From contig NC_092680.1 in the NCBI RefSeq assembly GCF_964355755.1, positions 13,835,045-13,899,044 on the forward strand: 64,000 nt of DNA. The letters are read 5' to 3'. Positions 13,123 to 63,300 of this stretch are shown one piece after another. Every line of letters begins with the position of its first letter. The first letter of the stretch is position 1. A program made the position numbers and the translations under genes. Origin of the DNA: Antedon mediterranea (lineage: Eukaryota > Animalia > Echinodermata). The notes under the pieces are model-generated. The model ran no database searches. It saw nothing but the letters and a program-made list of their open reading frames with translations, and was not told where the DNA came from.

Positions 13123-13124
13123 AA

Positions 13125-14447: not shown

Positions 14448-14450
14448 TTT

Positions 14451-14837: not shown

Positions 14838-14861
14838 CTTTATTTATTTGTTGTTGTTTTT

Positions 14862-15638: not shown

Positions 15639-15643
15639 GATGT

Positions 15644-16702: not shown

Positions 16703-16988
16703 AACTCTCCCACTCGTTGAAATGAAACACTCACACATAAAACATTACTTTTTAAAAAAGAACAACAACATTTTTTTTTTGTAAATTACCAAACAATATT
16801 TTTTATTAACACACCGCACGAATCAAATATAGTACAATTGGAAATATAGTTTACATACATTTGGTTTACTAATACTTTTTAAAATAATTGCAAGTAATTA
16901 GAATAATCGTGAAAATAAAAGAATACAAATAAATTGTAAATGGCGTCGGTAAACAAATAATTTGATTTATAGTTCATTGTTAAGAAAG

Positions 16989-17804: not shown

Positions 17805-18060
17805 GTTGAGCGATTGTATGTAGAGTGATGTACAGAGAGAGTAAAACGAATGATGGTTGATAGTTCTGAATGATTTCGTTTGAATCAGGTCCGATATATA
17901 TACAGTTGAGTACGGAAGTACTTTTTTAAAAGTAATTAGCCTAAAGCGTTGTTAATTGTTTTTCCTATCAATTGTCTCCCTACAACACGTGCGGCTTAAA
18001 GCATTGTTAATTGTTTGTTTTCCGGTCAATCGTTTTTCCGTGGCACGTGCGAAACACGTT

Positions 18061-18612
18061 TTAGATATCCTCACACAATAACTTATACAGGTTCTCTGAA
18101 TTAGTCAAGGTATTTACGAGAAAGTAAACAAAATGTCTATACCGTGGTAATGAATATTCCTCGTACTTATTCAGCTCGCTGTATACGGTATCGTCTGTAA
18201 CATACTCTTTATCCAGAACCTCCCGATAAAAATAGTCAATCTGTTCTTCTGGAGATTTCATTAAACAAAAGTCATGATCTTTTTGACCAGGCCTATCAAA
18301 TTCGCAACCATAACAAGCCGCTTTACTTAACATCCAGCACATGTTTAACACTTGAGAAACAAACACTTCTCTGGCTAAATATTCCAATTTCAATAAAAAT
18401 TCTCTCTCTACCTCATCTACGTACGTAAATATACAACTTGTAGCCCGGCTACCCCTCTCAACTCCTTCATCAACACCGGCGGGTACACCCTCATTGGTCC
18501 GCATGTACCGATCACCGATATCGCTACCTGTAACAACAGTCTCCTCATCATCGCTAATAATTATAACTGTATCTACACAGCTACCTAACGAAAAATCTAT
18601 ACTTCCAGACAT
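18061..18612 (-). CDS. Acidic Maverick accessory protein with SIM-like motif and C-x2-C-x9-H-x2-C motif
   Basis: 183-aa ORF starting at ATG next to the right TIR; VIIISDDEE and CYGCEFDRPGQKDHDFC. Confidence 0.7.
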   Translation of the reverse strand: MSGSIDFSLGSCVDTVIIISDDEETVVTGSDIGDRYMRTNEGVPAGVDEGVERGSRATSCIFTYVDEVEREFLLKLEYLAREVFVSQVLNMCWMLSKAACYGCEFDRPGQKDHDFCLMKSPEEQIDYFYREVLDKEYVTDDTVYSELNKYEEYSLPRYRHFVYFLVNTLTNSENLYKLLCEDI

Positions 18613-18780
18613 AGCGAAATACTGTAACTCTACGATAAAATAGACGAAATAACTGGAAAGGTCACAAAAAGCAGTCCCTCTTCATACAATGTCTAAAAAG
18701 AAACGGCTCTAAAATATAAAAACAAAACTATTGTACCAAACAAAAAGAACAATGAACAAAAGAAATTAGGAAATACTAAA

Positions 18781-19414
18781 CAAAGGTGACCTATGCAATG
18801 GTCAAACCGCCTAAAAATAACAATAGCAATCCTCAAACAAAGAACTGCCTTCACTAGTATATTTAAAATACAAATTCATCACCAGCTACAATTATAACCC
18901 CAGGCCAAAACAAAAACCCCGCCAAAATAACAAACCCCCTTCTCTAACAAAGAATGACCTTTCGCTAATTAATATTACAATAACAGGAAATTAAACAATA
19001 GAAAATAAATTATATACCCTGAGGATATGACATTCCTTTCCGGCCTGGTACAAATAATGACCTTTCACTAATTATTATTACAATACCTGGAAATTAAACA
19101 ATAGAAATATGAAATATACCCTGGGGGTATGACATTCCATTCGGGTCTGGTACAAAGAGTGACCTTTCACTAATTATTATTACAATACCTGGAAATTAAA
19201 CAATAGAAATATGAAATATACCCTGGGGGTATGACATTCCATTCGGGTCTGGTACAAAGAGTGACCTTTCACTAATTATTATTACAATACCTGGAAATTA
19301 AACAATAGAAATATGAAATATGCCCTAGGGGTATGACATTCCATTCGGGTCTGGAATACTCCTGCCCTGGGGGTATGACCTTCCATTTTGGACTGTATTC
19401 CCTCTACCTCTACT
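18781..19414 (-). repeat. Maverick right TIR (~634 bp, four ~102-bp internal units)
   Basis: Reverse complement of 3795-4224 plus two extra 102-bp units; ends CCCTCTACCTCTACT. Confidence 0.93.
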
Positions 19415-19514
19415 TATATAGTATTGGTGCTCTTTCTTTGGCTACGGTACCCTAGGGGGGAAAGAGCGTTTTAGACCAGCCACAAACACATATACACAAG
19501 GCTGTGGTAGGCGT

Positions 19515-24584: not shown

Positions 24585-26043
24585 CTTAGGGACATATTGA
24601 GGGATAGGCAAAGCAAAGGGGAAAAAGACTTGGTAATTAGAAGGGGGAAAATAACTCGGTTTCGTTCCCAAAGCACTACCCAATCGGAAGAGAACACTGC
24701 CTAACAATGTAAGTTCTACGCAGTCAGAAGATGTTAATGATTTTTTTAATGTGTTTCATACAAATTGTGATTCCCTTCTAAATAAGAAGAATGAGCTTCT
24801 GTTGCGTTTATCTTCAGAGAAAGTTGATATCATTGCTTTGACTGAGATTCTACCAAAGAAGTACTTTTTTGAATTGTCTATAGAAGAGTTTCATATCCCT
24901 GGTTTTCAGATGTTTTTGCCAAATGAAAAGCTTTCATCTGGTAGAGGAGTTGTTATTTATGTTCGAAATGGGATGTCTGCCACTCCTGTTTTGTTTAAAG
25001 ATAATTTGTTTGAGGAATCCATGTTTGTTGAGATTAGAGTCAAAGATCGCACCTTTTTAATTGGATGTGTGTATAGAAGTGACGCCGGATCTAGTGTCAA
25101 TAATTCTGCTTTGTGTTCTCTGTTTAGAAAAGTAGCATCCTTTTCTTGTTCTGATTTTATTATAGTTGGAGATTTCAATTATAGGAGTATTAATTGGGAG
25201 CTAGGATATGTGACTGGTGAAGATGGTAAAAACAGTCAAAAATGTTTCGACACCATTAATGACTTATTTTTAGCTCAGCATGTACGAGACCCAACCCGTT
25301 ACAGAATAGGAGAACAGGCCAATGTTCTGGACCTGGTACTTACATCTAATGAGGATTCTATTAGTGAGGTCCTTCAAGCTCCACCATTAGGTAAGAGTGA
25401 TCATATGGTACTTCGATTTAAAATTCCAGTTAATTTAATCAAAGATGAGGTGGTAGAGGTCAGAAATTATTTCCATGTTGATTATGATAAGTTTCGTGGT
25501 TTTCTTAATGGTGTCGATTGGGACACTGAGTTATTGGATAAGGACGGGTTACACTCGCACGGTTCTTTTGATGAGACTTATCTAGAGGTATGGAACAGTT
25601 TGTTCCAAAGTGTAAGAAACACTTGTCCGGAAATTTTAAGAGACCTTTGTGGTTTACTAAGGATTAAACAGAAGAATAAATGCTGGAAACAGTATATCAA
25701 AGTAAAACGTAAAGGGCATGACTGTGCTAGTGTCAAATGGAACACGTTTATTAGAGTAAGGAATGATACTGTCAATTTGATTAAGAGTTCTAAAAGCATC
25801 TTCGAAAATAAGATTGCAAATGAGGTTAAAGTCAATGAAAAGTCTTTTTGGCGCTATGTAAATTCTCAGTTAAACACCAGATCTGGTATTCCTACTCTTA
25901 GAAATTTTGAAGGTAAACTTGTTGTAGATAACCAAGATAAAGCCGAGTCTTTTAATTCTTTTTTTAGCAATGTCTTTTGTAAGGAGAACCAGGGAAGAGT
26001 TAACTCTTCCCTGGGAGAACCTATCCAATGTTCCGAATCTTGA
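24585..26043 (+). mobile_element. CR1-type LINE fragment: ORF1 tail and ORF2 endonuclease, truncated before RT
   Basis: ORF1-like RQSKGEKDLVIRRGKI; ORF2 HTNCDSL, IALTE, GRGVVIYV, GCVYR, GDFNY, PTR, LDLVLT, SDH, K.FWRY, KAESFN.FF. Confidence 0.88.
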
Positions 26044-31200: not shown

Positions 31201-34200
31201 ATATTTGGCGGCCAAAAACAGTCCTTAAAGGTCACATCATTATGAAAGAATGTCTCCTCAATGATTGCATCGGACCTGTTTTTCACAGTATTTTATTTAT
31301 GTACCATAAAAAATTGGCTACGCTGAATCTGATTAAAACGGCCTCAAAATTACACTAGAACGCGTTGCTTCCGGGGACTTCATCCCATGGTCCCTTGGTG
31401 GCCCCTGTGGAGCCGTGAAATGTGCAAAAAGTCACATTTGTGCAAACAACCACATTTGTGCAAACATTTTACCTTCAAATGTGCAAATCTGTTAAAATTC
31501 ATAACCCGCAAATGTGCAAACATCACGCCGTTAAATGTAAAAACGATCAGTTTTGACGTTAAATGTGCAAAAGGTATTCTACAAATGTGCAAAGCATTCT
31601 TCAACCAAGCTCCTATTCCATTTTATATTTTTGGTTCGTAGGTCTTTCAGAGTAGAAATAACAATAGGAAAAAGAGTATAAGAAAATGTTCAATATCATA
31701 ACTAATTATACTGTTGTATTTTATTATAATCAAAGGCTCCAAATCGCCTCGGCTAAATTCAAGTCGGCCCCAAGTCAACTCGCCCTGAAGTCAACTCGGC
31801 CTCAAGTCAACTCGGCCAAAAACTAATCGGTCAACTAACATTCATATTCATTCTAATATTCATCCCTATAACATGCGCACTTCGTTTTTATTATTTTTCT
31901 TCTGTTCAGTAGACTTATTTTGTCCCATTCATTTGCACTTTTTGCGTTTCATACTTTAAAGTGGCCTAGTTGACGTGAGGCCGAGTTGACTTCAGGGCGA
32001 GTTGACTTGTGGGCGAGTTGACTTGGGGTCGACTTGAATTTGACTTAGACGGGTTAAAGCCTTTGATCATAATTAAATACAACAGTATAATTAGCCTAGT
32101 TATTATGATATTGAGCATTTTAAATTTATTAGACTCTTTTACCTATTGTTATTTCTACTCTGAAAGACCTACGAACCAAAAATATAAAATGTAATAGGAA
32201 TTTGACTGAATAAATGATTTGTACATTTGTAGAATACCTTTTGCACATTTAACGTCAAAACGGATCGTTTTTACATTTAACGTCGTGATGTTTGCACATT
32301 TGCAGGTTATACATTTTTACAGATTTGCACATTTGAAGGTAAAATGTTTGCACAAATGTGGTTGTTTGCACATTTGAAGGTAAAATGTTTGCACAAATGT
32401 GGTTGTTTGCACAAATGTGACTTTTTGCACATTTCACGGCTCCACAGCCCCCCTCAGCCTAATGATGCTCGCATAGCCAATAAAATAATGTGCCACATTT
32501 CATTCCTAGTGCTAAGTGCTTTAGTGTCAACAAGCTTTTCTTGCGTGAATTTTAAAGACCCCTTTCCCTGCAATTTTGGACGTTTTTTGGAAAATAATAT
32601 ATATACAGTATATCACTTTAAAAACATTAAACCATGTCATTCCTTGTCTTAAATGTACGTTTTATGGTAAATTATGATAAAAAGTGAGAAACAATGCACT
32701 ACCTAAGTAGCTCGCGGCGATCGACCTCTCGTGGACGGTCTTAGGCCTAGCCTAGCTAGGCTTAGTTTTGTAGGCCTAGCTGGTAAACATCGATAACGTA
32801 CGAACATCGTACGCTAGCTATATACCTAGCCTGACGTTGTATAGTTGCTGCATTAATTGTCTTTCTATTTTTGCCAAACTCCGTTGATACAAATTGGGGA
32901 AAACCCGGTATTTTCGCTGAAAAGTTAGGAGTCTTCCATTTGTTTTGGCTTCACGATCGATCGAAAAGTGGGCGAATTACAGGTGAAAAACAAAAATATC
33001 AATCCGCGCGCAATGCATTTTGGGATTTATAGCGGGCCGCTATAATTATTAGAATCGATTTATTTTTCACATTTTTAACCATTTAAAGACGAAAAAAGTT
33101 ATCCCAATAGGACCATATAGTATTATTTTTACATTAAATATAGTTTGTGATCTTAAATTAGATCTAAAAAACGTAGGGAATGGGGCTTTAATTAAAAAAG
33201 TTAATTAGATTTTTCTGATTTTATCGTAATTTTCCCCTAATTTAATTAACGCCGTGGTTAGGATTCCGGCACCGGAACTCAACTGCTCACCGGTAGGGAA
33301 TCCGACACGCTATTGCGCATGCCCAGAGCTCTGGGAAGTGAATTAGCTTGCACTAATAATACAGTAGTGCCACACACCACACACCACCACCGAGAGTCGG
33401 AGTGTTATAATAGGGATTTACTGTAGCCTCGATAGTCGTTGCGCGAGCGAGAGATGGATGAAACTTGGCCTATGCCATGCATGAATTAATAATTAGAATA
33501 CGACTACGCCACGCGTTAAAATAATTATAATGATATTAATAAGAATCAGTATCTATCTAAGAATCGTAATGCTGTTTTTAGCGTTGCGACCCCGAATTTC
33601 CGAACAGTTTTTTCACATCCACGCGGTGGCTGCCGTCAACAAATCAACTTATGATTGCATGTTTATGTACAGTATAATGCGTTATGAAAAATCAAAAAAA
33701 CTAGTCATGTAATTACTGTATATAGTTTATATATGAATGAAGCAACAACTTTTTAATTACAAAATAAATAGGCCCACTGATCACGTCTAACTGGTAGCCC
33801 TAGCCTAGATTATTGGATCCCGTATTAGTATGCATGTAGGCTAGTTCGCCGTGTGGCAGTGGCGTAACAGGCGGGGGGGGGGCAGGGGGGCGGAATACCC
33901 CCCTGGCGGATTTTACCGGGTTGAGAAGCGTTCGATCGGGCTGGGTAACAAGTAAAAAAAATAAAATAAAATACAAAGAAGGGATAGAAGAAAGAAAATA
34001 TAAGATAAGAATAAAATATACGATATATGATATGGCTTCAAATGAGTCACAGTACAGTATGATATCATATGATATTCAAGTAAGATGACGCACTGCTTAT
34101 CAGTACATTAACAAGCGGTCAGTTGACTGTGGTTTTTGGCGTCTTTTATCTAAGCCGCCATCGCGGGCATCTCATACACAATTGTGACGCTGTGCTGTGC

Positions 34201-35958
34201 GTCCGTGTGAGGCCACCTTAAAAAAATACACTCCTACTAATCGTATGTAACGCGCTAGCGATCAGCAAAATGAACGTACTTTCGTGGTTGGCTGTCACTC
34301 CAATACTCAATCTTTCACAGGCATACTAACACAACACTACGATTGTTTACTACAGGTCTAGTCAAGCCTTAATAAATTTAATTAATATAAATCGACATAA
34401 GAATATAAAGTATATTTTAACTAAAATATAAAAACCTAACACTACATTTACAAGATAAATTCTATTTGATAACTGCTGAACATCGTGGCACAGAGCATAG
34501 TTGTTTGCTTGACATAAAAGGGTATTCCCCTACACAGGTCTCTGCGTGCGTGTGACGTGCCCAGCCAGCTGCTTGATAGTATAGAGAGAAAGCATGCAGC
34601 TCACGCAAGTGCAAGATGCAATGGTTGAGTGAATTCAGGGATCACCTTAATTCCATGGTTTGTTACCTAAACACCACATGATGGTGAATATGCCTGTTAA
34701 AGTCTCAATGATACGATCCCTTAATGTACCATGTTGTTGTTAGGAGGCTTAAAGGGAGGAGGGATCTAGCCTAGTTTCGGTCGGCAAGAGAATGCCTTCC
34801 TCTGACAATTTAAGGTCGGCAATAAGGTCGGCAATTGAAATTCGTGGGCTGGAAATTTCACCAAATTATATAGTTCATAAACAAAAGAGTTTAGCCGGAA
34901 ATGCGATTTGCGGCCATACATAGGCCTATAGAGAAAAAATTCGAGGGTATGTTTCCACTAAACAATTTAACGATCCACCCCGCCGTCAAACCTGGTTACG
35001 GCCCTGTTTCAGTCTTCTAACCGGAAAAATTACTACCTTTGCCAGGTGCGGATCCAATGTTAGATTGGGTTTTCACATGTTCAAATGTTATGTCACCTGA
35101 GTTTTTAACGGTGGAAAATGTACGATCATTTTGCTGATTGCTGTGCAATAAATGGGAGTGTTATTTCCAGGCCAACTACTACTAGTTAGGCGCCATTTAT
35201 CATGAATTTTATGTGCGAGAGTACCATTTCCGACGATCTAGGGGTGTCATTTACCAAAATTCGCTTCGCCACAGCCCCCACCATGGGGGAGCTGTGGCTC
35301 AAGTACTTGGTGTCTGGAAAGATTTTCCCCTCTTTGCCCCCCCTGACAAGACCCCCTTGTTACGCGGCTGCCGTGTGGGCGCCATGATCCATCGCGCGCT
35401 GTTATTAGAGGAGAGTCGCCGATTACCTCGCTCTGGGCATGCGCAATAGCGTGTCGGATTCCCTAACGCTGGGCAGTTGAGTTCCGGTGCCGGAATCCTA
35501 ACCACGGCGTTTAACTAAACACTACTGGTGTTAAGAATTTCTTACCCGATCGTCTTTCACCCTTGATGGACACGATCGTCTCACGATTTGGGCCCGATCG
35601 TCTCACGATTTGGGCCCGATCGTCTCACGATTTGGGCCCGATCGTCTTGAAGTGGTCACGATCGTCTGATAACCCACTTGTCACTACTCACTACATATTG
35701 GCCTAGCTAGCTAGTACGTAGGCGCGGCGCGCCGCGCCTAGAACTAGCCTAGGGCCTAACTAGGCTACATCACGCCCCAATACAATTGATTGACAATTCT
35801 TAACATAGGCTTAGGCCTAGCGTAATATTAAAACATTATTGAATAGGCCTAGCTGTTTTTATATCATAATATTATGTTGTTAAGCCTTATTTACCACAAT
35901 AATAGAGTAAACCTTTCGTCTTTAGGCCTTTTGATAAACGTTGTATGGAGGCTGCCAT
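28207..35958 (-). CDS. SDHAF4: Succinate dehydrogenase assembly factor 4, join(35958..35895,28460..28207), 105 aa
   Basis: C-terminal [30 protein letters not shown] signature; exon 1 AAAATGGCA...TG/GTAAAT (64 nt, phase 1) matches acceptor TTTAG/GT, giving a basic mitochondrial presequence. Confidence 0.9.
31406..32446. mobile_element. Non-autonomous foldback element with TGT...ACA ends (Ginger-like), 5-bp TSD GCCCC
   Basis: TGTGGAGCCGTGAAATGTGCAAAAAG...CTTTTTGCACATTTCACGGCTCCACA; arms of ~400 bp; GCCCC at 31401-31405 and 32447-32451. Confidence 0.75.
32556..33187. mobile_element. TTAA-flanked MITE (Kolobok/piggyBac-like)
   Basis: TTAA|AGACCCCTTTCCCTGC ... GTAGGGAATGGGGCT|TTAA; imperfect short TIRs. 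Confidence 0.5.
33249..35510. mobile_element. MITE with ~80-bp TIRs and TTA TSD (PIF/Harbinger-like), interrupted by a hAT element
   Basis: ACGCCGTGGTTAGGATTCCGGCACCGGAACTCAACTG...GCCCAGAGC is inverted at ~35430-35510; TTA on both flanks. Confidence 0.75.
33857..35370. mobile_element. Non-autonomous hAT-type element, 8-bp TSD CCGTGTGG
   Basis: CAGTGGCGTAACAGG ... CCTTGTTACGCGGCTG; CCGTGTGG at 33849-33856 and 35371-35378. Confidence 0.8.
35573..35647. repeat. 22-bp minisatellite CGATCGTCTCACGATTTGGGCC x3.4 (MITE subterminal repeats)
   Basis: Three exact units plus a partial unit. Confidence 0.85.
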
Positions 35959-36330: not shown

Positions 36331-39300
36331 ATGTCTGCTAAAAGAAGAAAGTATAGTGGGGATGATGGTGACGCTGGTAAGTAAATTTATAAAAATCAGT
36401 CATCTGATTTACCAGATGGTTAGCCTCTAGGCCTAGGCCTAGGCCTAGCCTACTACTAGGCTAGGCCTAGCTAGAGTAGGCCCCTCGGTCGGCCTAGTAG
36501 TAGTAGGCCTAGCCTAGCCTTAGGTAGCCTAGATAGTAAGAGAGGTTAGGCTAAGGGTGGCCTAGGCGCTACGCCTAAGCCTAGCCTGGCTAGGGTGGTA
36601 GAGGTAGTGGGACGATTAAACCCGGGACGATTCGGCACTGAAACAGTTCCAGGACGATTTGGCCCTGAGACGATTCAGCCCGGGACTATTCGGCCCACGT
36701 TTGGTGGGACGATTCGGCTCACTTTTGTTTTGGGCCAACATCCCAAATAAATGACCAAATTCATATTCATTTTTTTTAGTATTTATCAAGTTTTTAAAGG
36801 TATGGATACCGCATGGAGGTATAAAAATAGAAGGAGAGAGCTCCCAAGATAAGCCTTTGTAGTACTGTAGTCCGCCGCCTCATAAAATTAATTGATGTCC
36901 TCCATATAGCACAGCCTGTTACGTATATGTTTTAATCCCGTCCTTCAGTCTGCATAATGCGGTCACTTCCGGCGTAGTCGCTTCCGGGTCGCGTTCTGTG
37001 TCGTTGCGCATGCTCTGCCGATCAACGTGCTATTGTTTAATGCTAAGAGATGCGTAAAATGGCTGCTTACAGCATGGATGATTTTTATATTGGCGGAGAT
37101 CTCAGCAATTTAAGCGATTTTGAAGAACTTCTAGATAACATAGAAGATACAGAAAATAATGATGATGATGATGATGATGTTTGTATTTGTGGGCAATTAG
37201 GCACAATGGAAATGATCCTGTGTGAAAATACATCGTGTTCTGTCAAGTGGTTCCATTATGAGTGTGTTTCTCTCACAAAGAAAACCATACCGAAAGGCAA
37301 GTGGTATTGCAAAAACTGTACGGAAGGTAAGGTACTTGCGAATATTAAGTATACCTGGGTGGTTGTTGATAAAACAGACCACCAAGTTACTATAGTAGCT
37401 AGGAATTATTAACCCCATTGACTTATGAAAAGGCCCAGGAATATACTGTAACTTTTATTATTAACACTGGGCTAGCTAGGCCTAGCTGGTGGACTACAAA
37501 CTGGCGGAGTAGCGTCAGCTAGGCAAGACAGTACGAGAGGCCAATAGTACAAATCAAGTGATATTATTTTCAAAATTACAGGTAAAGAAGTATGTACTAA
37601 AGAGAAAAATAAAGGAAAAAAATCAAAAGAAAAGACAGAAGAAACTGGGCACAAGAAAACTGATCTTACAAAAAAAACCAAAAAACAAAAAAAAGGTATT
37701 GTCGTGTACTACTACTATGCCATGGACAAGACAATTATAATTACAGTTGTTTTTTTTATTTATAGAAAACATATATTATTTTTATCTTGTTTTTAATTGA
37801 AACTAATTAAAATCTCTCATTTTATTGTTTAGTCTTGCGTCCCCCATCCTGCTTCCTTAAAGACATGGCACTCGGCAAGGCAGTGGATTTTGTCATTACG
37901 ACACTTAAAGACATACCAAATAAGCCAATTTACAAGCTGCAATTGCAAAATACAAAGGAGATAAGACGTATAGCTTCTATACTATTTGAAAAACAGGGAG
38001 ATACAAAATTTAAGCGTTTCAGTGAAACGACTATAGGAAAGCTGTGGAACTGCATCGAGTTCAGCCGCACAAAGTATTTATCAGTAGAAGCAGACAATGA
38101 AATGTGGCGCTCTTTTCATTTTGTGAAAATTAGTACAATCGATTCCTGGCATGTATTACTTGCAGAAATGGAAATCCAATTTACAACCATACCAGCTAAT
38201 ATTTTATACCAAGAGCTTCTTTTAGATCTCATGAAATTACTTATATCGGAAAGTAACAGGGTCAACAACACCAGTGATGATGTTGCTGCAAGTCCTATAA
38301 TTTTGACAAAAGATGAAGAGGAAATTTTGAGGTACCTTGCCGGGTATATTCCACATGCACTATTGAAACGCTACAGAAAATTACCAAACAATATTACAGC
38401 ATCAGCTTTTACAACAGAATTATTAATGTGGAAAGAGCAGAAAGAAATTGAGTCAACTTCATTTTATGCATACACTCATGCTTGGATCAGTAAACAGAAT
38501 CGTGGTGGACTGTTTCAAGTAAACGACAAAGTGTTCCTACTATTTCGAGAACTGGAGGTTGTGTTCCAAGAACATGTTACAGGAAAGACTTTGTCCCAAA
38601 TGAAAGGTGTAAATTTGAATAATCTATTAATGGGCAAACTACAGCAGAACAGAAAAGTTGATAGATGTTGGTGTGCAGTTATTAATGGAAGATTGCAAGA
38701 AAGACTATCTTTAGAATTGCAACAAAAAGTATATAGGTACTGGATAAAGATTAGGAGTAAAGCTTTTGTTAAAGTCTATCTAGACCTACAGAAAAAGAAA
38801 GATGCATCATCAGTATCTGGCAAATGTGAAAAAGCACTTCGTAAAACATTGCATAAAAACTAGTACTGTATTTATTTAGAACCTTTGATCAAAGTGGTAA
38901 TAAACATTACACATTTATAATATTCTGTATACCCCATAACATCAATACCAGCCTACTCCAGAGTTACTGCAATTTTTTTTTGTATAATCATATAAAGTAA
39001 TTAAAAATAAAAAGTTCAATAAATAAATAGTAATGCGATTCATTTCTGTCCTTTGTGTAGTGGCGTTGAATCTAAATAGTTATTACTACTTGTTGATGAT
39101 TTGCAGTTGGCCTTTTTGGAGGCACGTACACAATTACCAGCAACATGAAGTACCATCATGTTGTGGCCAAACTGTTCAATAGTTGGATTATCGTATGATC
39201 GACCTACTCCTCTCTGTTTGCTGAAATACTCTTCAAGTGGGTCTTGATTGAGTTTTTCGCTTAAGATGTACTTTGCCCCGGAACACAGCAACTGCCGACT

Positions 39301-42300
39301 CAGTTGGACAAATGAACGAACTAGAAGATAACAATTTATTGTAACATGATTATATATTAATTTATAAGACAAGATCTGATAACATTTTACTTATGCAATC
39401 ACAATCATGATTAGCTGTTTTTATGAAACTCACCTGTCATGCGTATACCATAAACAGTCGCATCGCTAAGACACATCTTCTTCTTTTGTGCATTTGATAC
39501 ATATGGCAGCGTTCTTACTTCCTCTTCCCATTCATCAAAGAATGAAAGAAATTCCCCCTCGAGCCACTAAATAAATAGAGTTTTTATAGACAAAACAGGT
39601 TACATTATACCACATAATCATGCTGTAGGTTGGTCAATTTGATTCAATATCCCTTGAAAATAACTTACCTCAAATCTCCAATCATCAACGGATGTATATG
39701 GTACAAGAGTTGGCTTAACACTTTTGGTAGGGTTCCATGGCTTAGAAACATTCAAGCAGTCAAAAAACCGATCAAGGAAGCGTACAAATTTTTGTGTTGA
39801 TTTTGTGTCAGTTCTGCCCTGTGCTTCTAAAGCATTAGCTACTGATGTACTCAAAACCTGTTAAAATTACAATAAAATAAGGATATGTTGACATAAAGAT
39901 TTCCAACCAGAACCGCATTTTTCCAGATTGACAGTTGTAGAAAGTTACTGTACCTGTACTGCCATGTGCACTTTCATTCGATGAGAAGAAGACAGGTGTA
40001 GATGCTCATAAGTAATTTTGTTTAACCGCCTTAGTCCAATACTATTCCGCTTGTCTAATCCTGTGTCCCATTCATACAGTTTTAGTAGCTGCGTCCATGT
40101 AATATCCTGTTTGTTAAACTGAGAGGTAAAATTGTAATGTATTAATCAATTGTTCATTTGTGAGTTCTATCTATATTTTGATTATGTCTGGTCAATCCTG
40201 ATTGTCAAATAATAATTTAATAATAACAGGTTGTTATTAATTAATTTTTTTTGGAGTAAAAACACTTACATGTAGATTTCTTGTCTTGTTATGATAGTTG
40301 GAGTTCTCCCAATTATTTCTAGCCGTTTTCATCAGATGTGGTGCATCACTGATAAAAAACAGTCGTCGGTGAGGATCAACAGGATGTGTTGTATAGAAAG
40401 TCACTCCATCAGTGCATACTTCAGTGCTTGAATGCAAAGTGAAGAACTTTCTATTTGGAGCGGCTCCATCACAAACAAATGCTTGGACACGTAATCCCAA
40501 TGCTTCCAATACATTAACTGCTTCACTTATGATGGGATACAAGGACCTACTACCAATACCTTCTGTTGGGTAATAGGATATTGGTGTAAGCAGTGACCCA
40601 CAAATGCTTCTCGCCATTAACACCAAAACATGTGTGGCTAGACTAGCATCATTGCTGCCATTGCAACGTGCCTCAAAGTCTGCAATGTCATTCGATATGT
40701 CCCCAACATCTGTGTAGCCAACTAGCTGTCCGCTTCCAACATTGAACACTAGACCGGACTTCACCTTCATCTCATCAAATAATATCGAAACATCACGTTC
40801 ATAATCAGAGATTTGCTCAATCCGCAAGTCACTAAATACTCTATTTAAAAATTCATCACTGATCCCAGCGATAGGTGTTGCAAAGTGGGTGTATTTTTTT
40901 AATGTTTTTAAATGTGGTAATTTCAAAAAACCACTGTCTCTTAGCAACTCATAACCAGATGTGGATTTTGAACTTAATGCAATACACCACCGAATTATTG
41001 CTGGATGCCAACGCATTTGTTTGTTTTTTTCATAAGCCTCTTTTTGTTGTTTCCACAACAACTGAGCTGCTGGTTTATCTTCCAGTAGTTTTTCAGCAGA
41101 TTGAAAGCGAGTTAATGTCTCACCTAGCAACTTGGCCTGAGTTTCTGTGATTGCGGTCGCCTCCTTACTGATGACATCACATATTTTGTCTTGTAGAAGA
41201 TTGCTTCGCCTTTTCAGACTTTTGTTTTGCTGTTTTAACAGATGTGCCTTGCGACTAAGTTCGCACTTTGATAGGAGATCATTTCTTACAGATGATGACA
41301 ATACATCACTAACACTGGAACTTGCTCTTTGTTTGTTAACCAAAGACATCAAATCACTGCGATGCACTTTACAAGGAAAGCAACGGCCCTCACTTTCAAT
41401 CAATACATGACAATTTATATGCCTTGTATTAGTCTTGCTTACCAAATCTATGTCTGTGTTTCCAGCACAATAGGTCATATTTGACACAGCGCATATCAAC
41501 TTAACAATATCTTCAGAATTCAAATTCTTGCCAAAGCTCTGAAGATGACCCTTCTTACTCACTGGCTTTTCATAGGCGTATACTTCCCAACAACCCTCAT
41601 CACTTACAGAAATACATTTGCTAGCTTGACCGCACTTATTGACAATTGCAAAAACATGGAAATTCTCATCAATACAACTACCAAACCCAAGTTTTGCTGC
41701 ATACATTTGGACTTCACTCCAGTTGATTTTTAACTCTGGGCTGCCATTATCTTTAAACTCGGCAAGCTGAATGTTTAATAAAACCTTTTTGTTCCGCTTG
41801 GCTTTATCCCACCACCTTCTTAAAGATCGAACACAAATCTCACATATGAATTCTGGAAAACAATCATTGTCATCACTGATGTCAATATTGAAAGCACGTT
41901 GAATTTGCAATTGAAATCTACCTTTCTTGTAGGCATCGGTTTGTGTTACTCTGCTAACACCACAAAGCCTGCAACAATTATTCATATCTTTTTCTTTCTG
42001 TTTCCTAAGTCAAAAAGAAAAATAATTAATTAAATTACTGTACTGAATGTATGCATATTTAATAATATAAAACTGCATGAATAAGTTAATGTATGCCTGG
42101 CCATACATTATAATCATTATATTAGACCTATGAGTATTTAAACATTTAATAATATTACATTATTATTAATAATATTAAGCTATTTTATATGCCTAGCCTA
42201 AATAAATTTTAAAACAAATCATAAATTTAATTGCCTGGTCCTAATTAATGATAATAAAATAAGTCTGTGTACTGTGTAGGCCTAACTACCTGGGAATATG

Positions 42301-45300
42301 ATATAGCCTAGACTATGCTTATAAATAATAATTAATAATATAGGCCTAGCCTTAGTAGAGTAGCCTAGCTACTAAGCTAGCCTGTCTCTTTTATTAGTAG
42401 TGAAACTAGGCCTCTAAAGAGAGAATAGTAATAGTATAATAAATTCTAGGCATATAGTTAGGGCCTAGCCTAGATTTTATATTCATTATGCTACCCCGAC
42501 CCTAGCCTAAAAACCTAAATATGCTAGGCCTAATCACTGTTTTGTAATCGAATACCCCCACATTCATTCTTAACAAACCCGCGAAAAAGCCTTCTTTATT
42601 TTCGTCAATATCTTTGGACGGTCATCGTTGGCAGCCCAGCGACTAACGTAAAAGTATAAAGCAATAACCATACCTTATTCACACAAAATGACAGCTGTCT
42701 GACGGCGTATATTAATATTTTATCGTAAAAATATATATTGCATAAACAGCAATAAAATATCAATGATAATTATAATAGAAACTTGATAAAATTCGCTTAA
42801 AATGTCGTACGTAATCGTGTTTGGTATCAATATTTAGGTAATTTTAAGCGGGAAACGAAAATGTTGATTGCGCAATAATTATATCACAAACAATAGCACT
42901 GCGCATGCCAAAAGTATATGTGTTTGTTTGTGTTTATTCGAGGCTCTGACCTCCTCTACAATAGAGGGCTGAACTAGAGCGGCGGCTAACCTTGGTGAGA
43001 AAGGGCTTCCTGCTACCGCCGCGGGCTGTCGGTACAAGGCTTCGGCTTTGAAAATATCATATCGCACATCCTGTTAATTGGATTAAGCAGATTACATACA
43101 TTCGAGCTCTCTCCTTCTATTTTTATACCTCCATGGATACCGAGAGCTGACTCCATTTTCATTACCACGATTAAACAGAGCGCACGTTACTATGCGCGCA
43201 ATGTCAATGTCAATGTGTTTTTCTACTTTGGTAAACACTTTTTATTAGTTTGGGCCTAGGTCATTATTCTGAAAATAAATTAATTATGAAAATATCCTTT
43301 TGAGTGAATATTTATTTACCTTCGAGGCTCACTCACTCCATGGTTCTGGTGGTAGAACGAGTCTTCTCGGATTAGGACTAAAACCGTAGGTCCAGTGTAC
43401 ACATCTAGCTCGTGTGCACTTTAAAGAACCTAGTACATCTTTCGAGACGAGTAGGGGGTTACCCCGGTGTATTAGTACATCACAGCCACTGATCACCAAC
43501 TGGGCCCTCTGGGAGACCAGCCTTTGACTGAAGAGGTTACCCAGTATAAATATAAACTTCAATTCAATTCAATTCAACCTATTATTCTATAAGATCAAGT
43601 ATTTTTTATTTCCATTTCATTCAACCAAACATGAGAATATAGCCTAGTGGTTAAAAGATCATCATCGTCTAGCGAAACCATCGGAAGGCTGAATGACCTA
43701 CCATTTTCAACCTTGTTTTTGTAGTTGAGACTCTTATGACCTAAAAATGTTTTTCTTCCTACACCAAGATAATATAGTTCCACATACCATGTGCTTGTTT
43801 TAAGTGCTAAAAAAACCGGTTTTATCCCGATATGAGGCCTTTATGATTCGAATATTTCATAGTAACAACCAATATACCATGAAAAATAATTTTTGGAAAA
43901 TTCCAAGGGGCTCAACTACAAAAACGCCATTTTGTGGTATGATGTCATCGTAAGCCAATCAAACCTCCGCTTTCGACCGCTTCGCAGGGCTCACGCTTGA
44001 ACAATTTTGGATTCCCGCCCTTTGATTGGTTGACGCGAATCAACACACAGCGGAGAAATTTTCCCGCGAGTGCCGTGAAGTCACGTGGGCTCAGGTCTGT
44101 CCAATTACACCGGAAAATAATGCATTGAAATTCTTCGAATGAGGTTAAAATATAGTCATTTACCGGTATATATTTTAATTAATTGTATTTGTGGATTTTA
44201 ACATCGAAATCAATCATCTTTGTATATACAATGTAAACTATATCAAGTTATGGTACCTGTTTTTAACAATGTATCATAAATTAGCGAAAAAACATGTTTA
44301 ACCGATTCACCACGATAAGTGCTTAAAGCGCTCATGAGGTTAAAAGTCAAGGTCATTGTAAACAAATTATCAACAAATAAAAAGTAAATCGAATTTACAT
44401 GTGCAGTGTGATGTGCATGATTCGTGACAATAAATTATACAAAATACTCACAACAACAGTACAGTACAGTTTTGTTCCTCTCACTGATGCCAGTCGCATC
44501 CAAGAGGCAGTCTTCTCTATCATCCGAATATATGCTTGGTCCGACTGTTAAGGGTTTCCTTGACTGGGTTAGCTTTTTAGCTTGACTAGGATCGCACTGG
44601 AGGAGATTGCTTAATTTAATCCAGGGGTCACGATAGTATGGTTTTCGGGCTTGTGCAAAGAGCATTCGTTTTGTTAATGAGTTACTTGGTTCTTGACAGA
44701 TATAGGCTATGTACTTCAGGTAGTGAAAATATGCTTCTAAATATATAAAAACAATTGTTGAAGTTATGGGCATGAAATATTTTTCAAACTCTGCGCAAAG
44801 GTCAGTTTGTTGAAGTATAACTTTTGATAAACATTTTGATACCAAACTTGTTTTGGTTTCATAAGTTTCCGATGCATTTTCATCTAATTTTCTGCAAGCT
44901 ACACATCTAAAATAGCGGACTAAGGCTATGTTTAGACCCATGGCGTTAGACCGTTTTACCGTACATTGTTACGGGCAAGGTAATCGAATAAAATCAATCA
45001 ATATTATACGTCTTATTTTATTGAATTTTAAATATTTCCCCTGCCTACAGTACTGTCTCATCTTCTGATGATTGAATATGATAGTAATAAGTTATTTATA
45101 TAAAGTAATTGATGTAATTTTATTTATCGATAGGGCCATTTAGTAAACGAAGGAAATCTGTCCATGATGAAATTGAAGAAAGACTTGAATCGCTCATCAC
45201 AAGGGTTGGCGAGAAGGTAAAAATAGTTTTTTCTTAAAGTATTTGATATCAATAAATTTAATATTTAATTTGTGAATTGTACTAAAGCTATTTATTATTG

Positions 45301-54300: not shown

Positions 54301-57300
54301 GCTTTTCCGCTATACCACGGCAAGTGTGTTAAGAGTAGCTATCCAGTCGAGTTTGAACAACACCATGACAGCCTCAGTGGTTTAATGGTTAGTACATCTG
54401 CATATTCAAGAAGAAGGTTCCAGATTCGAATTTCAGTTGGGGAAACTTTTTCTTAGTCTCACAGATTTTTTCATCTTTATCGTCTAAAATTTGTTCTGTG
54501 CCTGTGATGTTTATGTATCATACATTGTTATAATTGGTCAATTTTGAACTTTTACCCTTTTTATCCAATAAACACTGCTGTTGGTTATTGTTTTAATGAT
54601 TTATTAGCTTGCTCAAGCAGCTGAGATGATGTATGATCGTCTTGACTCCATGAACCTCAGTATTATGGATCGTTTTACTAACTGGTTTGCTCATCATCTT
54701 AGTAACTTTCAGTTCAGATGGAGTTGGGATGAATGGTAAGTATTATTCAGCTATCGGCCACGACAAGTGGTTTCTTGCAAAACACAGTTGCTTTATATAT
54801 AGAACACCATACCATCTGATAACAAAAAAGAAGAAATTCAGATACTTGTTCAATAGATAATAATAATAATAATAATAATAAGCTTTATTTAATCACGGAT
54901 ACTTAACTCAACTAAAAGTTGTTTTTCAGTAAGACCGTGCTCAAAGGAAAACACCAACAAAAATAAATGTAAAAAGCAAATATATATATGTAATAATGTT
55001 ACATGGATATCTCCCTAGATAATCCTGCTTATGCTATGTAACAGAATCATTAGAAAAATATGTGCAGATACTGCTGTTATGTTGGGCACAAAGTTAGTTT
55101 GCTTTTCAATATAGTTCACATGCTATTAAAGCAGCTTTAGTCTGAGCCCATACACATTTTGAAATGTTATAAATTCTGTTTAAATGAATTGACTGAATAT
55201 TTTAATATTAGAAATATATTTTTATAATTCCTAACAGGACTGATTGCTTGAACTCTGATCCTGAACTACCTAAGCCCAAGTTCATTAAGGAAGTTTTGAA
55301 AAAATGTATGCGACTGTCATACCACCAGCGAATTCTGGACAATATTCCTGACAGCTTTTCCTCTCTTATCCCAAAGGAACCCAAGCCAGTTTATAAGTAC
55401 AAACTAGAAGGAGCAAGTAAGTACTGTTTGTGGTTTAATAACATTTTTTGTTTTATTTGATGTATAAAACAACCAAAATGTTCATCATTGTGGAATTAAA
55501 TATTATATTTATACTTTTTCAAAATATTATTGCCTCCGAACACATACAAAACTGAGATACATTCTGTTGTGGAAATAATTCAGGTGCTATGTGCCTAAAA
55601 TTCTGTGCACTTTGTAGTTTAATGTGTATACACACAGCAGGGATTCCATTAACAATAAAGTCTAATGCCATGCATCTGTACTGTTACTAACTTTAAGTAA
55701 ATGTTTGTATTTTTTTCAGTCAGTATATGTATCTTAAATTCCCTATATTGATCTAGTTAATTAAAATAGTTTTTGAATGAAAAAAATCGGTGCCGTATTA
55801 AGCATTTTACAAAGTAGGCTGTTTTTTGTATCAAGCTTGAAAAACACAAGCTTTTAAAATGTTTTTAACGATGCAATCATGTTCTGATAATGTTTATGTG
55901 AAATTAATTATGTATAGCCAGAGTTGCTTATCTAAGAGATTATCATAACATTATGCCATCAATAGCTTAATGACTTAAACACATGTAATCTTCCTAATCC
56001 CTTTTTTCCACAACGGACTGTATCTCAGTTTCCCATGAGTTATTTTTGTTTGATAATGTTTTAACCTAAAAAACAAAGCCCAAGTTTTTCCAAAAGGACT
56101 GTTTCTCATATGATTAAATAACTGGTCAAATGCATCATTATCTGAATAAAAATTATTCCATTTCCATGGCAGCAGAAATTAGTAAAATAACAGTTAGAAC
56201 ATCCATTCGACTGACCGACATAGAACATTGGGTTGACCTTTGCAAAGTCTTGTCCATTTGAATGCAGAAACTAATTCATATATTGTCTTTAGGTCAATTA
56301 CCAGGCAATATGATGGCTCATAGATTGATCGATGCATTCAAATCGAGAGCTACACCTGAAGATGTAACCAAGTTATTAAAAGACACGCCCAATCCAAACA
56401 AAGATGAATATGCATTTGATGGTTAGTTTGTTCTTTATGTAAAAGTAATTATTTTTATTTTTAAAACCAAAAACAGCAGAAACCATAATCCAGAACCATA
56501 AATGTAAATGGGGGAATAACCTGCAACTTGCAGCCTACTAGGCTGAATTGCACGCAGGTGTGGACGACACCAAAGAACTTATAACACAAGAATCTCCTGT
56601 TCTTCAATTTGCATTCAAAACACAGTATCGGAAGTACAGGGTTAAAAGGTCAAACTGGGCGACGCCATTTCACAGCATGGAGCAGTGCCCCCTCCAAACT
56701 AGGAAGTCAATTACTCTACCCCCCCCCCCCCCTAGAGTATTAGCAGATCCCCTCTATGATTTTGACTTACTAATTTGATGCGGGCGCCCTACTCCTCAGT
56801 CAATTACTCTATCCCCTCTAGAGCATTAGCAGATCCCCTCTATGATTTTGACTTTCTAATTTGATGCGGGCGCCCTACTCCATGGCTCACAATGGCGCCA
56901 CCCATTGCTCTATTCTATCCCACAATGCCTTTCGAAATTGTTACGCGCTTCGGACGAACAGGAGATTCTTGTGTTATAAGTTCTTTGACGAAACATGCTA
57001 CAACTTTCTACTCCCCTAAGGGTTCCTTCATGTCGAGTGCTGTGACCAAACGGCACCCGTTTGTCCGTCAACAACGACAGGGGCGGAATGCACCAGTACA
57101 CCAGGGTAACCCCCTACTCTTTCGAAAAATGTACTGGGTTCATAATATTGTCAAGGGTTTGAGGCTCACTTCATGATTCTGGTGGTATAAAACGTCTTTA
57201 AGAAAAGGACTATAAACCGTAGCTCCAGTGTACAGACATTACTTATGTGCACTTTAAAGAACCTAGTGCATCTTTCAAGACTAGTAGGGGGTTACCCTGC

Positions 57301-60300: not shown

Positions 60301-63300
60301 TTTCATGATATTGTTTAAACTCGATTGGATATTGACTCTTTAATGATATATTGGATTCATGGTAAGGGAGAGTGAAAGTCCCTGTCATCTAATAGGACAC
60401 TATTATTATCTACAATACTATCCAAATTACATCTACCCTTGCATGCATACTGGCCGCGGAAAATATTTAGAAAAAAAGTGTGTTAATATTCCGCGATTAT
60501 GTAACTGTTAGCAGCTACTTCGAATCGGACCTCACGTACAGCATGCTCCAGTGATCTTCGAAGATGTGTTGAACAAAAGGTCATGGAGCTAGATCATTAT
60601 GTAAACCTTGACACGCCCATTCATTCATAATTTAAAACAAAAGATTCCAACTGTATTATTTGATAAACAATAATTGCGCTGGAGCATGCTGTACGTGAGG
60701 TCCAATTCGAAGTGGATGGTTATTTTAGGTAATTAATATATTGATATAACACAATCATACATTTCTATTCCTTTGACTGTATTTGAATATCAATCTTTAA
60801 AAGAAGCCCAGCGGGCTTGATTCGAGACTCAAGATTACTTTTTGCAAACTAGACCTCAAGATAGGTTTTACTGTACGGTATACTAAATATACTTGTTATA
60901 TTGATCAATGTTGTTATATTGTTTAATATATAGGACTCTGATATTAGTGACAGTGAAGAAGATATGGATGCCACAGAAACCCATCTGGAGGGTCTGCAGG
61001 AAAGCTTAGAATCTGCTCAGAGTGACCAGAAGAATATGTTTCTTATTATATTTCAGGTTAGTCATTTTTACTAATCTAATTGCAAATTGTTAGCACAGTA
61101 GTTCAATCTCTGGAATTTTACTTCTTGTTGTATGTGTCCCCGACAAAAGGCTAAAGAATGAGTGAATACCATTAAGCCTGGTTTCTACTAGCCAAATTTA
61201 GTCTGTGAATCCAGTGTTTTTGCAGGAAGCAAATTTGCCCTTTTTACCACAAGAACGATAGCTGCAATCTTTGTGTCTGCGGAGCTTTATGATTTGCATA
61301 AGTACTCATGAACACATAACTCATTTCCTGAGTTCTTATTGGTTTGCAAAATTGTTCACTTTGAAAAGTAGAAATATCAAGTTCTCTGAAGCAAACAACT
61401 CAAGTAACTAGAATTCATCAAGAGAAATTGATAATGGAAGATGAAAATATGAATTTGCTCGGTCTGAGCTGGAATCTTCCATTCGTCTTGTGGAATACAG
61501 GAGCAATTTAGAATGTTTAGATGAGATGGAAACTATGCCCACTTTGTATAATTACTTACCCGTTAGTACCACCGAGCAGCATAATTACTTACCCGTTAGT
61601 ACCACCGAGCAGCATAATTACTTACCCGTTAGTACCACCGAGCAGCATAATTACTTACCCGTTAGTACCACCGAGCAGCATAATTACTTACCCGTTAGTA
61701 CCACCGAGCAGCATAATTACTTACCCGTTAGTACCACCGAGCAGCATAATTACTTACCCGTTAGTACCACCGAGCAGCATAATTACTTACCCGTTAGTAC
61801 CACCGAGCAGCATAATTACTTACCCGTTAGTACCACCGAGCAGCATAATTACTTACCCGTTAGTACCACCGAGCAGCATAATTACTTACCCGTTAGTACC
61901 ACCAAGCAGCATAATTACTTACCCGTTAGTACCACCGAGCAGCATAATTACTTACCCGTTAGTACCACCGAGCAGCATAATTACTTACCCGTTAGTACCA
62001 CCAAGCAGCATAATTACTTACCCGTTAGTACCACCGAGCAGCATAATTACTTACCCGTTAGTACCACCGAGCAGCATAATTACTTACCCGTTAGTACCAC
62101 CAAGCAGCATAATTACTTACCCGTTAGTACCACCAAGCAGCATAATTACTTACCCGTTAGTACCACCGAGCAGCATAATTACTTACCCGTTAGTACCACC
62201 GAGCACCATAATTACTTACCCGTTAGTACCACCGAGCAGCATAATTACTTACCCGTTAGTACCACCGAGCAGCATAATTACTTACCCGTTAGTACCACCG
62301 AGCAGCATAATTACTTACCCGTTAGTACCACCGAGCAGCATAATTACTTACCCGTTAGTACCACCGAGCAGCATAATTACTTACCCGTTAGTACCACCGA
62401 GCAGCATAATTACTTACCCGTTAGTACCACCGAGCAGCATAATTACTTACCCGTTAGTACCACCGAGCAGCATAATTACTTACCCGTTAGTACCACCGAG
62501 CAGCATAATTACTTACCCGTTAGTACCACCGAGCAGCATAATTACTTACCCGTTAGTACCACCGAGCAATTCATGTGTAGATTTCTTTGTATTCATTCAT
62601 TTTGTTTTGTTTGTATGTGTTCTGTAATATTTTTATATTTTAGTAATGTCCATTGAAATGCTCCTTGATTGTGTCTAAGTATTTTTTTCTCGGACGTCCT
62701 TTCTTTTTTTTTCCATTAATTTATTGCTGTTAAACGTAACTCTTCTCATTACATGGCCGAGAATCTAAGTTGTCTTCGCTGTACACTGTTTATTAATTTT
62801 CTTGTTGTAGTTCTTTGCAACACTTTTATATTATTTTGCTGGTGATCAATTATGTTAACTCCACCTTTCTTAGGTGGATTCTGATTATTTGTTTGTTTTG
62901 TTGCTTACCTTCTTGGTGTTAATTTTATCAAATTTGTTATATGTCTTAATAGAGAATTGAATTGATCATTTGAAATATGTGCAAACCAATGAGGAATCTT
63001 CAGAACTCTCCTTAAAAACTACATCTCTGCTGCTTCTAACCTATTTCTTATGGCATTGCTTATTGTCCATGTTTCACAACTATACAGTAAGGTTGTCCAC
63101 ACATACGTTTTTAACACACAGTCTAATTTACATGAAAATCTTTTCACATTTTAAAATACTCTTTCGTTTTTTGTATGCATTCTTTGCAATGGCAATTATG
63201 GCCATAATTACTGTATTACACTTTCCGCCGGCTGTGTTAATGCGTCAAAGGTATTTGGTACTTTGAACTCTACTCCTTCCATCAACTATAATATCATAAT

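Follow-up and report, generated by a model that had tools for sequence, protein, structure and literature searches.

Textbooks present the P transposase as an enzyme of one polypeptide chain, and the question raised by this locus of Antedon mediterranea is what a second gene, encoding a PHD-finger protein, does between the ends of an element with a P-type transposase. The window is the whole stretch of DNA that was analysed, 64,000 nucleotides in length, and positions are counted from its first letter.

Ends, genes and transcripts

The two 32-nt terminal inverted repeats (TIRs) are 100% complementary, with the outermost letters CATGGAG (Table 1), and among the 25 longest exact inverted-repeat pairs listed for the window they are the sole pair with a flanking direct repeat longer than 3 bp. 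This target site duplication (TSD) was GATACCG on both sides and 7 bp was the only matching length among those tried (6-10), so an 8-bp TSD was dropped. Perfect TIRs, an intact 7-bp TSD and two convergent, spliced, stop-free genes had been claimed in an initial annotation of the window, and all were borne out by the repeats, the open frames and the splice joints in the public run X8. The tentative 12-bp subterminal repeat and its inverted copy match each other between the two element ends with a blastn-short E of 0.003. The window holds one full copy of the element and no empty insertion site was seen there, and a near-identical copy filed under a second organism label differs in 3 of 2,679 letters. 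The perfect ends and the open frames support an intact two-gene element of the P superfamily, young in appearance.

Table 1 Features of the element, with positions in the window
Feature	Position	Strand	Remarks
Left TSD	36805..36811		7 bp, GATACCG
Left TIR	36812..36843	+	32 bp, begins CAT
Candidate subterminal repeat	37027..37038	+	12 bp; inverted copy 42888-42899; tentative
Partner exon 1	37059..37326	+	acidic N-terminus (16 D/E in 41 aa) and PHD
ING-type PHD finger	37182..37319	+	aa 42-87; cage Met and Trp kept, Val at Tyr position
Partner exon 2	37582..37695	+	lysine-rich linker, likely nuclear-localising
Partner exon 3	37833..38863	+	helical domain (aa ~129-280), P-type CTD, basic tail
P-transposase CTD homolog	38297..38800	+	partner aa 283-450; 6p5a_B fold match
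Transposase last exon	39040..39320	-	catalytic E764, then 63 aa to stop; no CTD
Transposase coding exon 4	39434..39566	-	
Transposase coding exon 3	39669..39857	-	GTP-binding insertion domain
Transposase coding exon 2	39954..40118	-	GTP-binding insertion domain
Transposase coding exon 1	40270..41985	-	ZAD-fold finger, mixed alpha/beta domain, coiled coil, HTH, RNase H
ZAD-fold zinc finger	41796..41976	-	replaces THAP; corresponds to ZFa half of RAG1 NZD; second-zinc ligands missing here
Transposase 5'-UTR intron	42005..42673	-	669 nt, X8 joint; non-coding exon upstream from 42674
Right TIR	43104..43135	-	32 bp
Right TSD	43136..43142		7 bp, GATACCG

Joints for five of the six coding introns of the two genes were seen in X8. 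The transposase gene, on the minus strand, has five coding exons and encodes 827 aa with no internal stop, and X8 has canonical joints for all four of its coding introns as well as for the 669-nt intron of the 5'-UTR, none of which is present in X7 or X9. The partner gene, on the plus strand, has three exons, the first two of which encode only 128 aa. The joint of its intron 1 is present in X8 (donor 37327, acceptor 37581), and that of intron 2, absent from the listing, was deduced from the exactly 114 letters between the listed X8 contig pieces; because of this joint and this count, the partner is assigned the 470-aa form. The same 114 letters rule out skipping of exon 2. For the three exons of the partner, six ways of splicing leave the frame open, and the 473-aa protein proposed initially is one of them; like an 824-aa model and a 380-aa database model, it has open frames, yet is not a form backed by X8 joints. 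One X8 contig links the 3' end of the partner to the last transposase exons, which does not prove a single transcript. Little of the element was covered by X10.

The transposase

The P-type DDE transposase named in the initial annotation was confirmed. The RNase H core matched PF21787 (E 4.9e-24) and PF21789 (E 1.3e-5), the GTP-binding insertion domain matched PF21788 on two exons (E 8.2e-6 and 0.0013), and the transposase profile matched 6p5a_A (E 6.2e-17). The catalytic residues are D404, D506, D547-x-x-H550 and E764, and all eight of the GTP-site residues named in section 6 of PMC7776569 were matched when the alignments were compared by eye. As read from the sequence, the transposase keeps both its DDE and its GTP-site residues. 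The polypeptide ends 63 residues past E764 and has no C-terminal domain (CTD); related transposases end 57-85 aa past the same Glu motif at 11 of the 12 loci listed, the twelfth being broken. The alpha/beta domain (aa ~84-170) gave only middling fold matches, with Z up to 6.1 (Mediator, Knl1).

The Pfam search of the transposase found no match to THAP and a match to zf-AD instead (E 1.9e-5), and the N-terminus of the predicted model resembles ZADs (7po9, Z 7.8, rmsd 2.0, 63 aligned). The transposase family profile matched the RAG1 NZD (21wb_A, E 0.0048), RAG1 aligning solely to profile positions 4-98, and the NZD/Chapa-type finger PF12560 was above cut-off in the relative P0033. Only the four ZFa cysteines are retained in this copy, and the N-terminal His and the C-terminal Cys pair are kept, in RAG1 register as aligned by eye, in L007, P0028, P0031 and P0033. 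The structure 21wb was not among the fold-search lists for this finger, which come from libraries that may lack it. These comparisons support an N-terminal zinc finger of RAG1 NZD/ZAD type in the transposase family, a point overlooked by the initial annotation and on which its parallel with RAG becomes stronger. The relative L010, which has a partner gene, does carry THAP; since the transposase tree has one long outgroup and cannot be rooted, no order is claimed for the change from THAP to ZAD. The finger would likely aid dimerisation, with end recognition then left mostly to the HTH.

The partner protein

Exon 3 of the partner gave nothing at E≤10 in a single-sequence PDB search. Its predicted model is all-helical (pLDDT 84.7), and the top match by Foldseek among 350,542 chains was the P transposase CTD, 6p5a_B (probability 0.99, TM 0.68 by target, E 0.56). 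VIA-align placed 118 of 118 residues on 6p5a_B at 2.4 Å rmsd with Z 12.1, slightly short of the caution line for helical folds (~13), and the next row had Z 6.3. Sequence profiles, which are independent of the fold, pointed to the same structure: the best PDB match of a 133-member partner profile was 6p5a_B (E 0.0013), and PF12596 (Tnp_P_element_C) was the commonest family, in 10 of the 133 members at E≤0.1. The partner profile also matched the cis CTD of L028 (probability 88.6, E 2.6e-6), which itself matches 6p5a_B at E 2.9e-16; the cis CTD of P0034 was matched only weakly (E 0.047). The CTD family was absent from a Pfam search of the first 25 partners, and among longer fused forms (938-2,675 aa) there was none at E≤0.1, which is weak evidence. 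The collinear CTD motifs are retained, and 12 K/R among the final 40 residues make the tail basic.

The last 170 residues of the partner have the P CTD fold and the transposase has no CTD, and therefore the pair represents a split P transposase. The conserved core of the partner is, by profile match and predicted fold, the transposase's own CTD relocated to a separate gene. The initial view of the partner as an independent chromatin-reading subunit in the style of RAG2 is not sustained by this result; its other view, of an origin independent of RAG, holds in that the partner does not descend from RAG2: the CTD is of P type and the model has no kelch propeller. The helical domain of about 150 residues before the CTD did not clearly resemble any fold (Z 5.8 at best), and Ku80 and other weak helical matches were dropped (E≥0.12).

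Recurrence of the pair

The partner is not a one-off captured passenger. In Acanthaster planci and in Anneissia japonica, transposase and partner share a scaffold and have accessions that follow one another, so that the pair recurs in sea stars and crinoids, and a convergent partner was found at 6 of the 12 metagenome loci with at least 600 nt downstream and at 5 of the 7 with at least 1 kb. The two genes also diverge together: the identity matrices of 11 pairs, which are not independent and 4 of which were matched by scaffold length or accession rather than DNA, gave a Spearman correlation of 0.76 (permutation p 1e-4), with the same two groups in both trees. At E≤0.001 the partner family counts 4,934 representatives, and the top 150 are stand-alone proteins of 171-535 aa. 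Several diverged partner genes occur within one species (Anneissia and Patiria have three each). Scans for the partner in viral and prokaryote contigs found nothing, and the ESM Atlas search gave no usable match. A PF22824 label on P0009 failed to reappear in a later search and was set aside.

Proposed mechanism and alternatives

The CTD-less P transposase and its convergent PHD-CTD partner likely assemble on the element ends as a GTP-dependent cut-and-paste enzyme, a reading to which we assign a probability of roughly 0.7. The two proteins would function as one split enzyme. By analogy with the Drosophila structure, the partner CTD would lie flanked by one subunit's RNase H domain and the other subunit's GTP-binding domain, and its basic last helix would grip both transposon and target DNA; given this position and grip, the partner would be required for transposition. 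The fly CTD is already carried on a disordered linker, and therefore splitting there costs little. Less firmly, the freed N-terminus of the CTD protein may be a place where tethering modules can be attached (PHD, C2H2 or none), and the PHD may make the complex favour H3K4-methylated chromatin.

The alternative that survives best, though we consider it unlikely, is that the transposase is active by itself without a CTD, the CTD protein serving as a regulator (a repressor or dominant-negative, or a dosage switch) and not as an obligate subunit. Partner and cis CTD are both absent at 5 of the 12 informative loci (L006, L013, L016, L021 and L026), including L013 with 4.3 kb of downstream sequence, and the X8 contig across both 3' ends would fit overlapping 3' ends and antisense control. 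P elements do make a repressor from part of their transposase (PMC7776569, in part), but the known P repressor is an N-terminal portion and not the CTD. The regulator reading is also at odds with the extensive contacts of the CTD with donor and target DNA in the fly structure (PMC7776569, in part), and with the retention of the motifs and basic tail by the partner.

A split enzyme is also favoured over the possibility that the partner is a RAG2-like accessory, acquired independently and serving mainly to read chromatin through its PHD, which we judge improbable. The PHD protein on the plus strand, as first annotated, was confirmed (PF00628, E 1.6e-6), and in the PDB exon 1 matched PHDs of ING proteins best (E 5.5e-15). 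The ING-type PHD, which reads H3K4me3, has a Tyr-Met-Trp cage. The aromatic, Met and Trp positions of the cage are all kept in 4 of 10 parsed PHDs of the family, and this copy is without the cage tyrosine; the relative P0018 has a full cage. The convergent layout, the acidic stretch adjoining the PHD and the occurrence of PHD-bearing partners in crinoids, sea stars, sea urchins and a hemichordate would suit such an accessory; however, the conserved core is a P CTD and no foreign domain, and the model is all-helical. The PHD is also inconstant: N-terminally extended relatives (n=29) carry a PHD in 12 cases, a C2H2 finger in 8 (backed by Pfam in 7 of them at E≤0.1) and neither in 9, and no PHD was detected at the six partner-bearing metagenome loci, some of which are incomplete. 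As judged by these domain matches, the PHD is an exchangeable N-terminal add-on, optional among relatives.

It is very improbable that the host has domesticated the pair as a locus of its own, or that the element is dead and carries a passenger gene: the single full copy and the missing empty site in the window would agree with such a reading, but it is opposed by the perfect TIRs and TSD, the intact frames, the near-identical copy under the second label, the several diverged partner genes per species and the internally deleted derivatives seen as joints in X7 (37086->42556, 40996->42479).

Comparison with known systems

Canonical P elements and THAP9 depend on GTP and cleave with a 17-nt stagger. 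The element shares with Drosophila P transposase (PDB 6P5A/6PE2) and vertebrate THAP9 the HTH, the RNase H DDE domain, the GTP-binding insertion and the CTD fold; it differs from both in that the CTD is encoded by a convergent gene of its own, together with an added PHD and a helical domain of ~150 aa, and in that a ZAD/NZD-type finger replaces THAP. TIRs of ~31-32 bp beginning CAT are shared with the Drosophila P element (PMC7776569, in part), whose TSD is 8 bp instead of 7. A 7-bp TSD is found in Galileo and 1360/Hoppel of the same superfamily; compared by description only, these are intronless, and the extract of PMC3698922 that describes them mentions no second gene. A split P element of this form was not described in the papers searched. 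This is a large lineage of thousands of protein clusters with the CTD as its own gene, which makes the role of the CTD in end processing and target capture testable in trans. The natural module swaps on the CTD protein (PHD, C2H2, none) likewise make chromatin targeting testable and suggest an integration tool that has two parts and can be switched. There is a benefit for annotation too, as many marine-invertebrate genes with a PHD or C2H2 finger that are labelled 'uncharacterized' encode subunits of transposons.

Kolobok elements (KolX, KolobokP) and other two-gene DNA transposons also carry a second gene inside, sometimes on the complementary strand, and have lineage-specific accessory domains (PMC9587614, in part); their second proteins are unrelated accessories and not a split-off part of the transposase, and the Kolobok TSD is TTAA. 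Chapaev transposases (Chapa domain) share the NZD-like N-terminal zinc finger (bioRxiv 10.64898/2026.01.24.700457, in part), whereas their catalytic core differs; 'P element' and 'THAP' have 0 occurrences in the main text of that preprint. An NZD/ZAD finger on a P core widens the known range of a RAG1 domain.

The layout parallels the RAG recombinase, the partner is no relative of RAG2, and the second part may read chromatin. Like RAG-like transposons (ProtoRAG, RAG1L-RAG2L), the element has two convergent genes between TIRs, a second gene with a PHD and an acidic stretch, and a transposase N-terminal zinc finger related to the RAG1 NZD. Unlike them, it has a P-type instead of a Transib-type core, a partner that is the enzyme's own CTD instead of a six-bladed kelch propeller followed by a PHD, an ING-like PHD at the N-terminus, a 7-bp instead of a 5-bp TSD and no RSS-like heptamer at the TIR (PMC7204232, in part). 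It is a tentative idea, and one we hold to be rather doubtful, that an ambulacrarian P lineage rebuilt the RAG design: fission of the transposase would have yielded an obligate second subunit, this subunit would have gained an acidic stretch and an insertion-steering, H3K4me-reading PHD, and the catalytic subunit would have taken the N-terminal zinc finger of RAG1. If true, the lineage would be a living parallel to a one-gene transposase becoming a two-subunit, chromatin-guided recombinase, and the third home of the RAG1 NZD, after RAG1L and Chapaev.

Results

The P-superfamily element ends on both sides in a 32-bp inverted repeat without mismatch and is bordered by a 7-bp duplication, GATACCG, both of which the initial annotation had described and both of which were verified in the sequence. 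Alternative duplication lengths of 6, 8, 9 and 10 gave no match at these ends, and in the list of the window's 25 longest exact inverted repeats no other pair had a flanking direct repeat of more than 3 bp. A near-identical copy under a second organism label shows 3 differences in 2,679 letters, and X7, a public run compared with the window, contains the joints 37086 to 42556 and 40996 to 42479, which are internally deleted, non-autonomous derivatives, the shortest retaining the ends only. The perfect ends, the close copy and the deleted derivatives suggest that the element is young; neither an empty site nor a second full copy was seen in the window.

Features of the window, with the P element and its neighbours
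Feature	Position	Strand	Remark
Polinton/Maverick-like element	~3789-19420		bounded by long inverted repeats
Protein-primed DNA polymerase B	5183-9136		in Polinton/Maverick-like element
A32-type ATPase	10599-11309		in Polinton/Maverick-like element
Adenovirus-type protease	12601-13143		in Polinton/Maverick-like element
441-aa ORF	13128-14450		in Polinton/Maverick-like element; no Pfam match
rve integrase + chromodomain	15647-16744		in Polinton/Maverick-like element
PC4-domain ORF	16992-17951		in Polinton/Maverick-like element
Endonuclease ORF, non-LTR retrotransposon type	24655-26040	+	PF14529
Foldback-like element	31405-32447		perfect 83-bp arms, nested inverted repeats
Element with inverted arms of 39 bp and 36 bp	33248-35511		1.3 kb left of P element
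P element	36812-43135
Stop codons of both P-element genes	38863-39040		176 nt apart
Alpha/beta domain of transposase	~41476-41736	-	aa ~84-170
Very high-copy short repeat	~43321-43552		close to right end of P element; 81% match at 57165-57281
Long open frame, tandem 13-codon repeat	61445-62653	+

The transposase gene is an 827-aa frame of five exons with canonical introns on the minus strand, and the convergent partner gene on the plus strand allows six open three-exon splice choices of 467-475 aa. In the public run X8 each of the four coding introns of the transposase is spanned by a joint, as are its 669-nt 5'-UTR intron and the first intron of the partner; none of these joints was present in X7 or a third run, X9, so X8 looks transcript-derived. 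Exactly 114 letters, the length of exon 2, separate partner exons 1 and 3 in an X8 contig, and the partner is therefore 470 aa long; the two convergent, spliced, stop-free genes first annotated stand, with the transposase length unchanged and the partner corrected from 473 aa. A named record of the crinoid Antedon mediterranea matches the partner at 100% identity, with 83% of the exon-3 query covered. A single X8 contig spans partner exon 1 through the last three transposase exons, and there is a hint that the 3' ends of the two genes overlap.

In the transposase, Pfam matched both halves of the P-type RNase H domain and the GTP-binding insertion and gave a weak hit to an HTH, and the catalytic residues D404, D506, D547-x-x-H550 and E764 are all kept. 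The eight GTP-site residues tabulated in section 6 of PMC7776569 all have a counterpart (8/8) in alignments read by eye. At the N-terminus the Pfam search found no THAP domain and instead a zf-AD match (E 1.9e-5, weaker than the curated cut-off); the model of this region matches ZAD zinc fingers (7po9, probability 0.99, rmsd 1.7 in the fold search; Z 7.8 in a second comparison). Behind the zinc finger and ahead of the coiled coil lies an alpha/beta domain whose matches to Mediator and Knl1 domains are middling (Z 6.1), followed by family-wide conserved cysteines. The chain stops 63 residues past E764, without the P transposase C-terminal domain (CTD), and in relatives the frame ends 57-85 residues beyond the E764 motif in 11 of the 12 loci listed.

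Partner exon 3 gave no match in Pfam or in a single-sequence PDB search. For an AlphaFold model of the partner built from 27 sequences (pLDDT 84.7), the Drosophila P CTD, 6p5a_B, ranked first among 350,542 chains (probability 0.99, E 0.56), and VIA-align superposed 118/118 residues on it at rmsd 2.4 Å with Z 12.1 (runner-up 6.3). Independent sequence evidence carries weight here, because helical folds can reach VIA-align scores of about 13 by chance. The top PDB match of a 133-member partner profile was again 6p5a_B (E 0.0013), 10 of the 133 members matched Tnp_P_element_C (E<=0.1), and the partner profile met the CTD carried within the transposase chain (cis CTD) of L028, a metagenome locus with a canonical P element, at probability 88.6; this L028 ORF itself matches 6p5a_B at E 2.9e-16. 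As counter-evidence, a second cis CTD, in the related protein P0034, reached only E 0.047 against a smaller partner profile. Four CTD motifs of 6p5a_B occur in the same order in the partner, and the ~150 residues ahead are modelled as a helical domain to which no fold clearly corresponds. Profiles and model together identify the partner as the predicted CTD that is missing from the transposase.

At E<=0.001 the partner profile retrieved 4,934 cluster representatives, and lengths among the 150 best-scoring ones were 171-535 aa. Both genes lie on one scaffold with consecutive accessions in Acanthaster planci and Anneissia japonica (pairing by accession order), and genes from Patiria and one ENA contig were paired solely via equal-sized contigs. 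In 12 of 42 metagenome loci the end of the transposase could be placed and the sequence ran on for 600 nt or more: six of these carry a convergent partner, one a cis CTD and five neither, and with at least 1 kb past the transposase end the partner is found in 5 of 7. Co-occurrence across species, a check proposed initially, is thus seen in both named species and these six loci. The clearest exception is L013, with 4.3 kb downstream of the transposase and no partner detected. Over 11 pairs, identities among the transposases track those among the partners (Spearman 0.76 between the two matrices, p 1e-4), and the two trees agree on the same two groups, with weakly supported inner branches; because the pairs are related, this shows co-inheritance and not interface co-evolution. 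Judged by sequence, the pairing appears old and general. The P transposases of L013 (688-3939, a 1,084-aa frame) and L016 lack a CTD, and no partner was detected for either; a 197-aa ORF downstream in L013 has a weak hydrolase match (E 0.017); this type is possibly a different solution or a domestication.

The PHD finger first annotated on the partner was verified as ING-like, its top PDB matches being ING PHDs (E 5.5e-15). The ING2 cage, which we take to be Tyr, Met and Trp, is retained here as Met and Trp with Val in place of Tyr, and is complete in 4 of 10 family PHDs parsed. A home-made profile placed a PHD in 13 of 169 partner proteins, one of its 14 rows being excluded as a match confined to the acidic start; single-exon gene calls make up most of the 169 and are uninformative. 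The PHD is not general to the family: 29 partners with an N-terminal extension of at least 50 aa comprise 12 with a PHD, eight with a C2H2 finger and nine with neither. Named records of the PHD type come from crinoids, sea stars, sea urchins and a hemichordate, and those of the C2H2 type from hemichordates, amphioxus and a sea anemone. In L010 a THAP-bearing transposase accompanies a partner, so the transposase N-terminus swaps too. The PHD thus appears real but optional.

Discussion

The simplest account of the two-gene anatomy would be a split of the P transposase at the linker before the CTD, after which the partner would supply the CTD in trans. We give a probability of about 0.72 to the reading that this trans-acting CTD is required for transposition. 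PHD-guided targeting in this lineage, as an addition to the trans-CTD reading, is a tentative suggestion. That the partner is instead a regulator seems unlikely. The initial proposal of a RAG2-like, chromatin-reading second subunit is not supported, as the C-terminal part matches the P CTD and the PHD is optional, and a foreign accessory of that kind is improbable. Domestication of the pair is the least credible reading, with very little probability.

Among the papers listed by full-text searches, no title or abstract start described a two-gene or split P element; Repbase, Dfam and most subscription journals lay outside this scope and may hold an entry. Comparisons drew on passages of PMC7776569, PMC3698922, PMC9587614 and PMC7204232.

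A link to RAG1 that the initial annotation did not make lies in the transposase: the family profile matches the RAG1 N-terminal zinc domain (NZD; 21wb_A) at E 0.0048 across its first 98 positions, the related protein P0033 scores above the cut-off for PF12560 (RAG1_imp_bd), and metagenome locus L007 comes near it (E 8.5e-5). The NZD is known from RAG1, RAG1L and Chapaev according to the main text of preprint 10.64898/2026.01.24.700457, which mentions neither P elements nor THAP; its supplementary structural-hit table could list such proteins as 'uncharacterized'. Read by eye, the second-zinc ligands are kept in RAG1 register in several relatives and lost in the element's own copy. By profile, the N-terminal zinc finger of the transposase family appears related to the RAG1 NZD.
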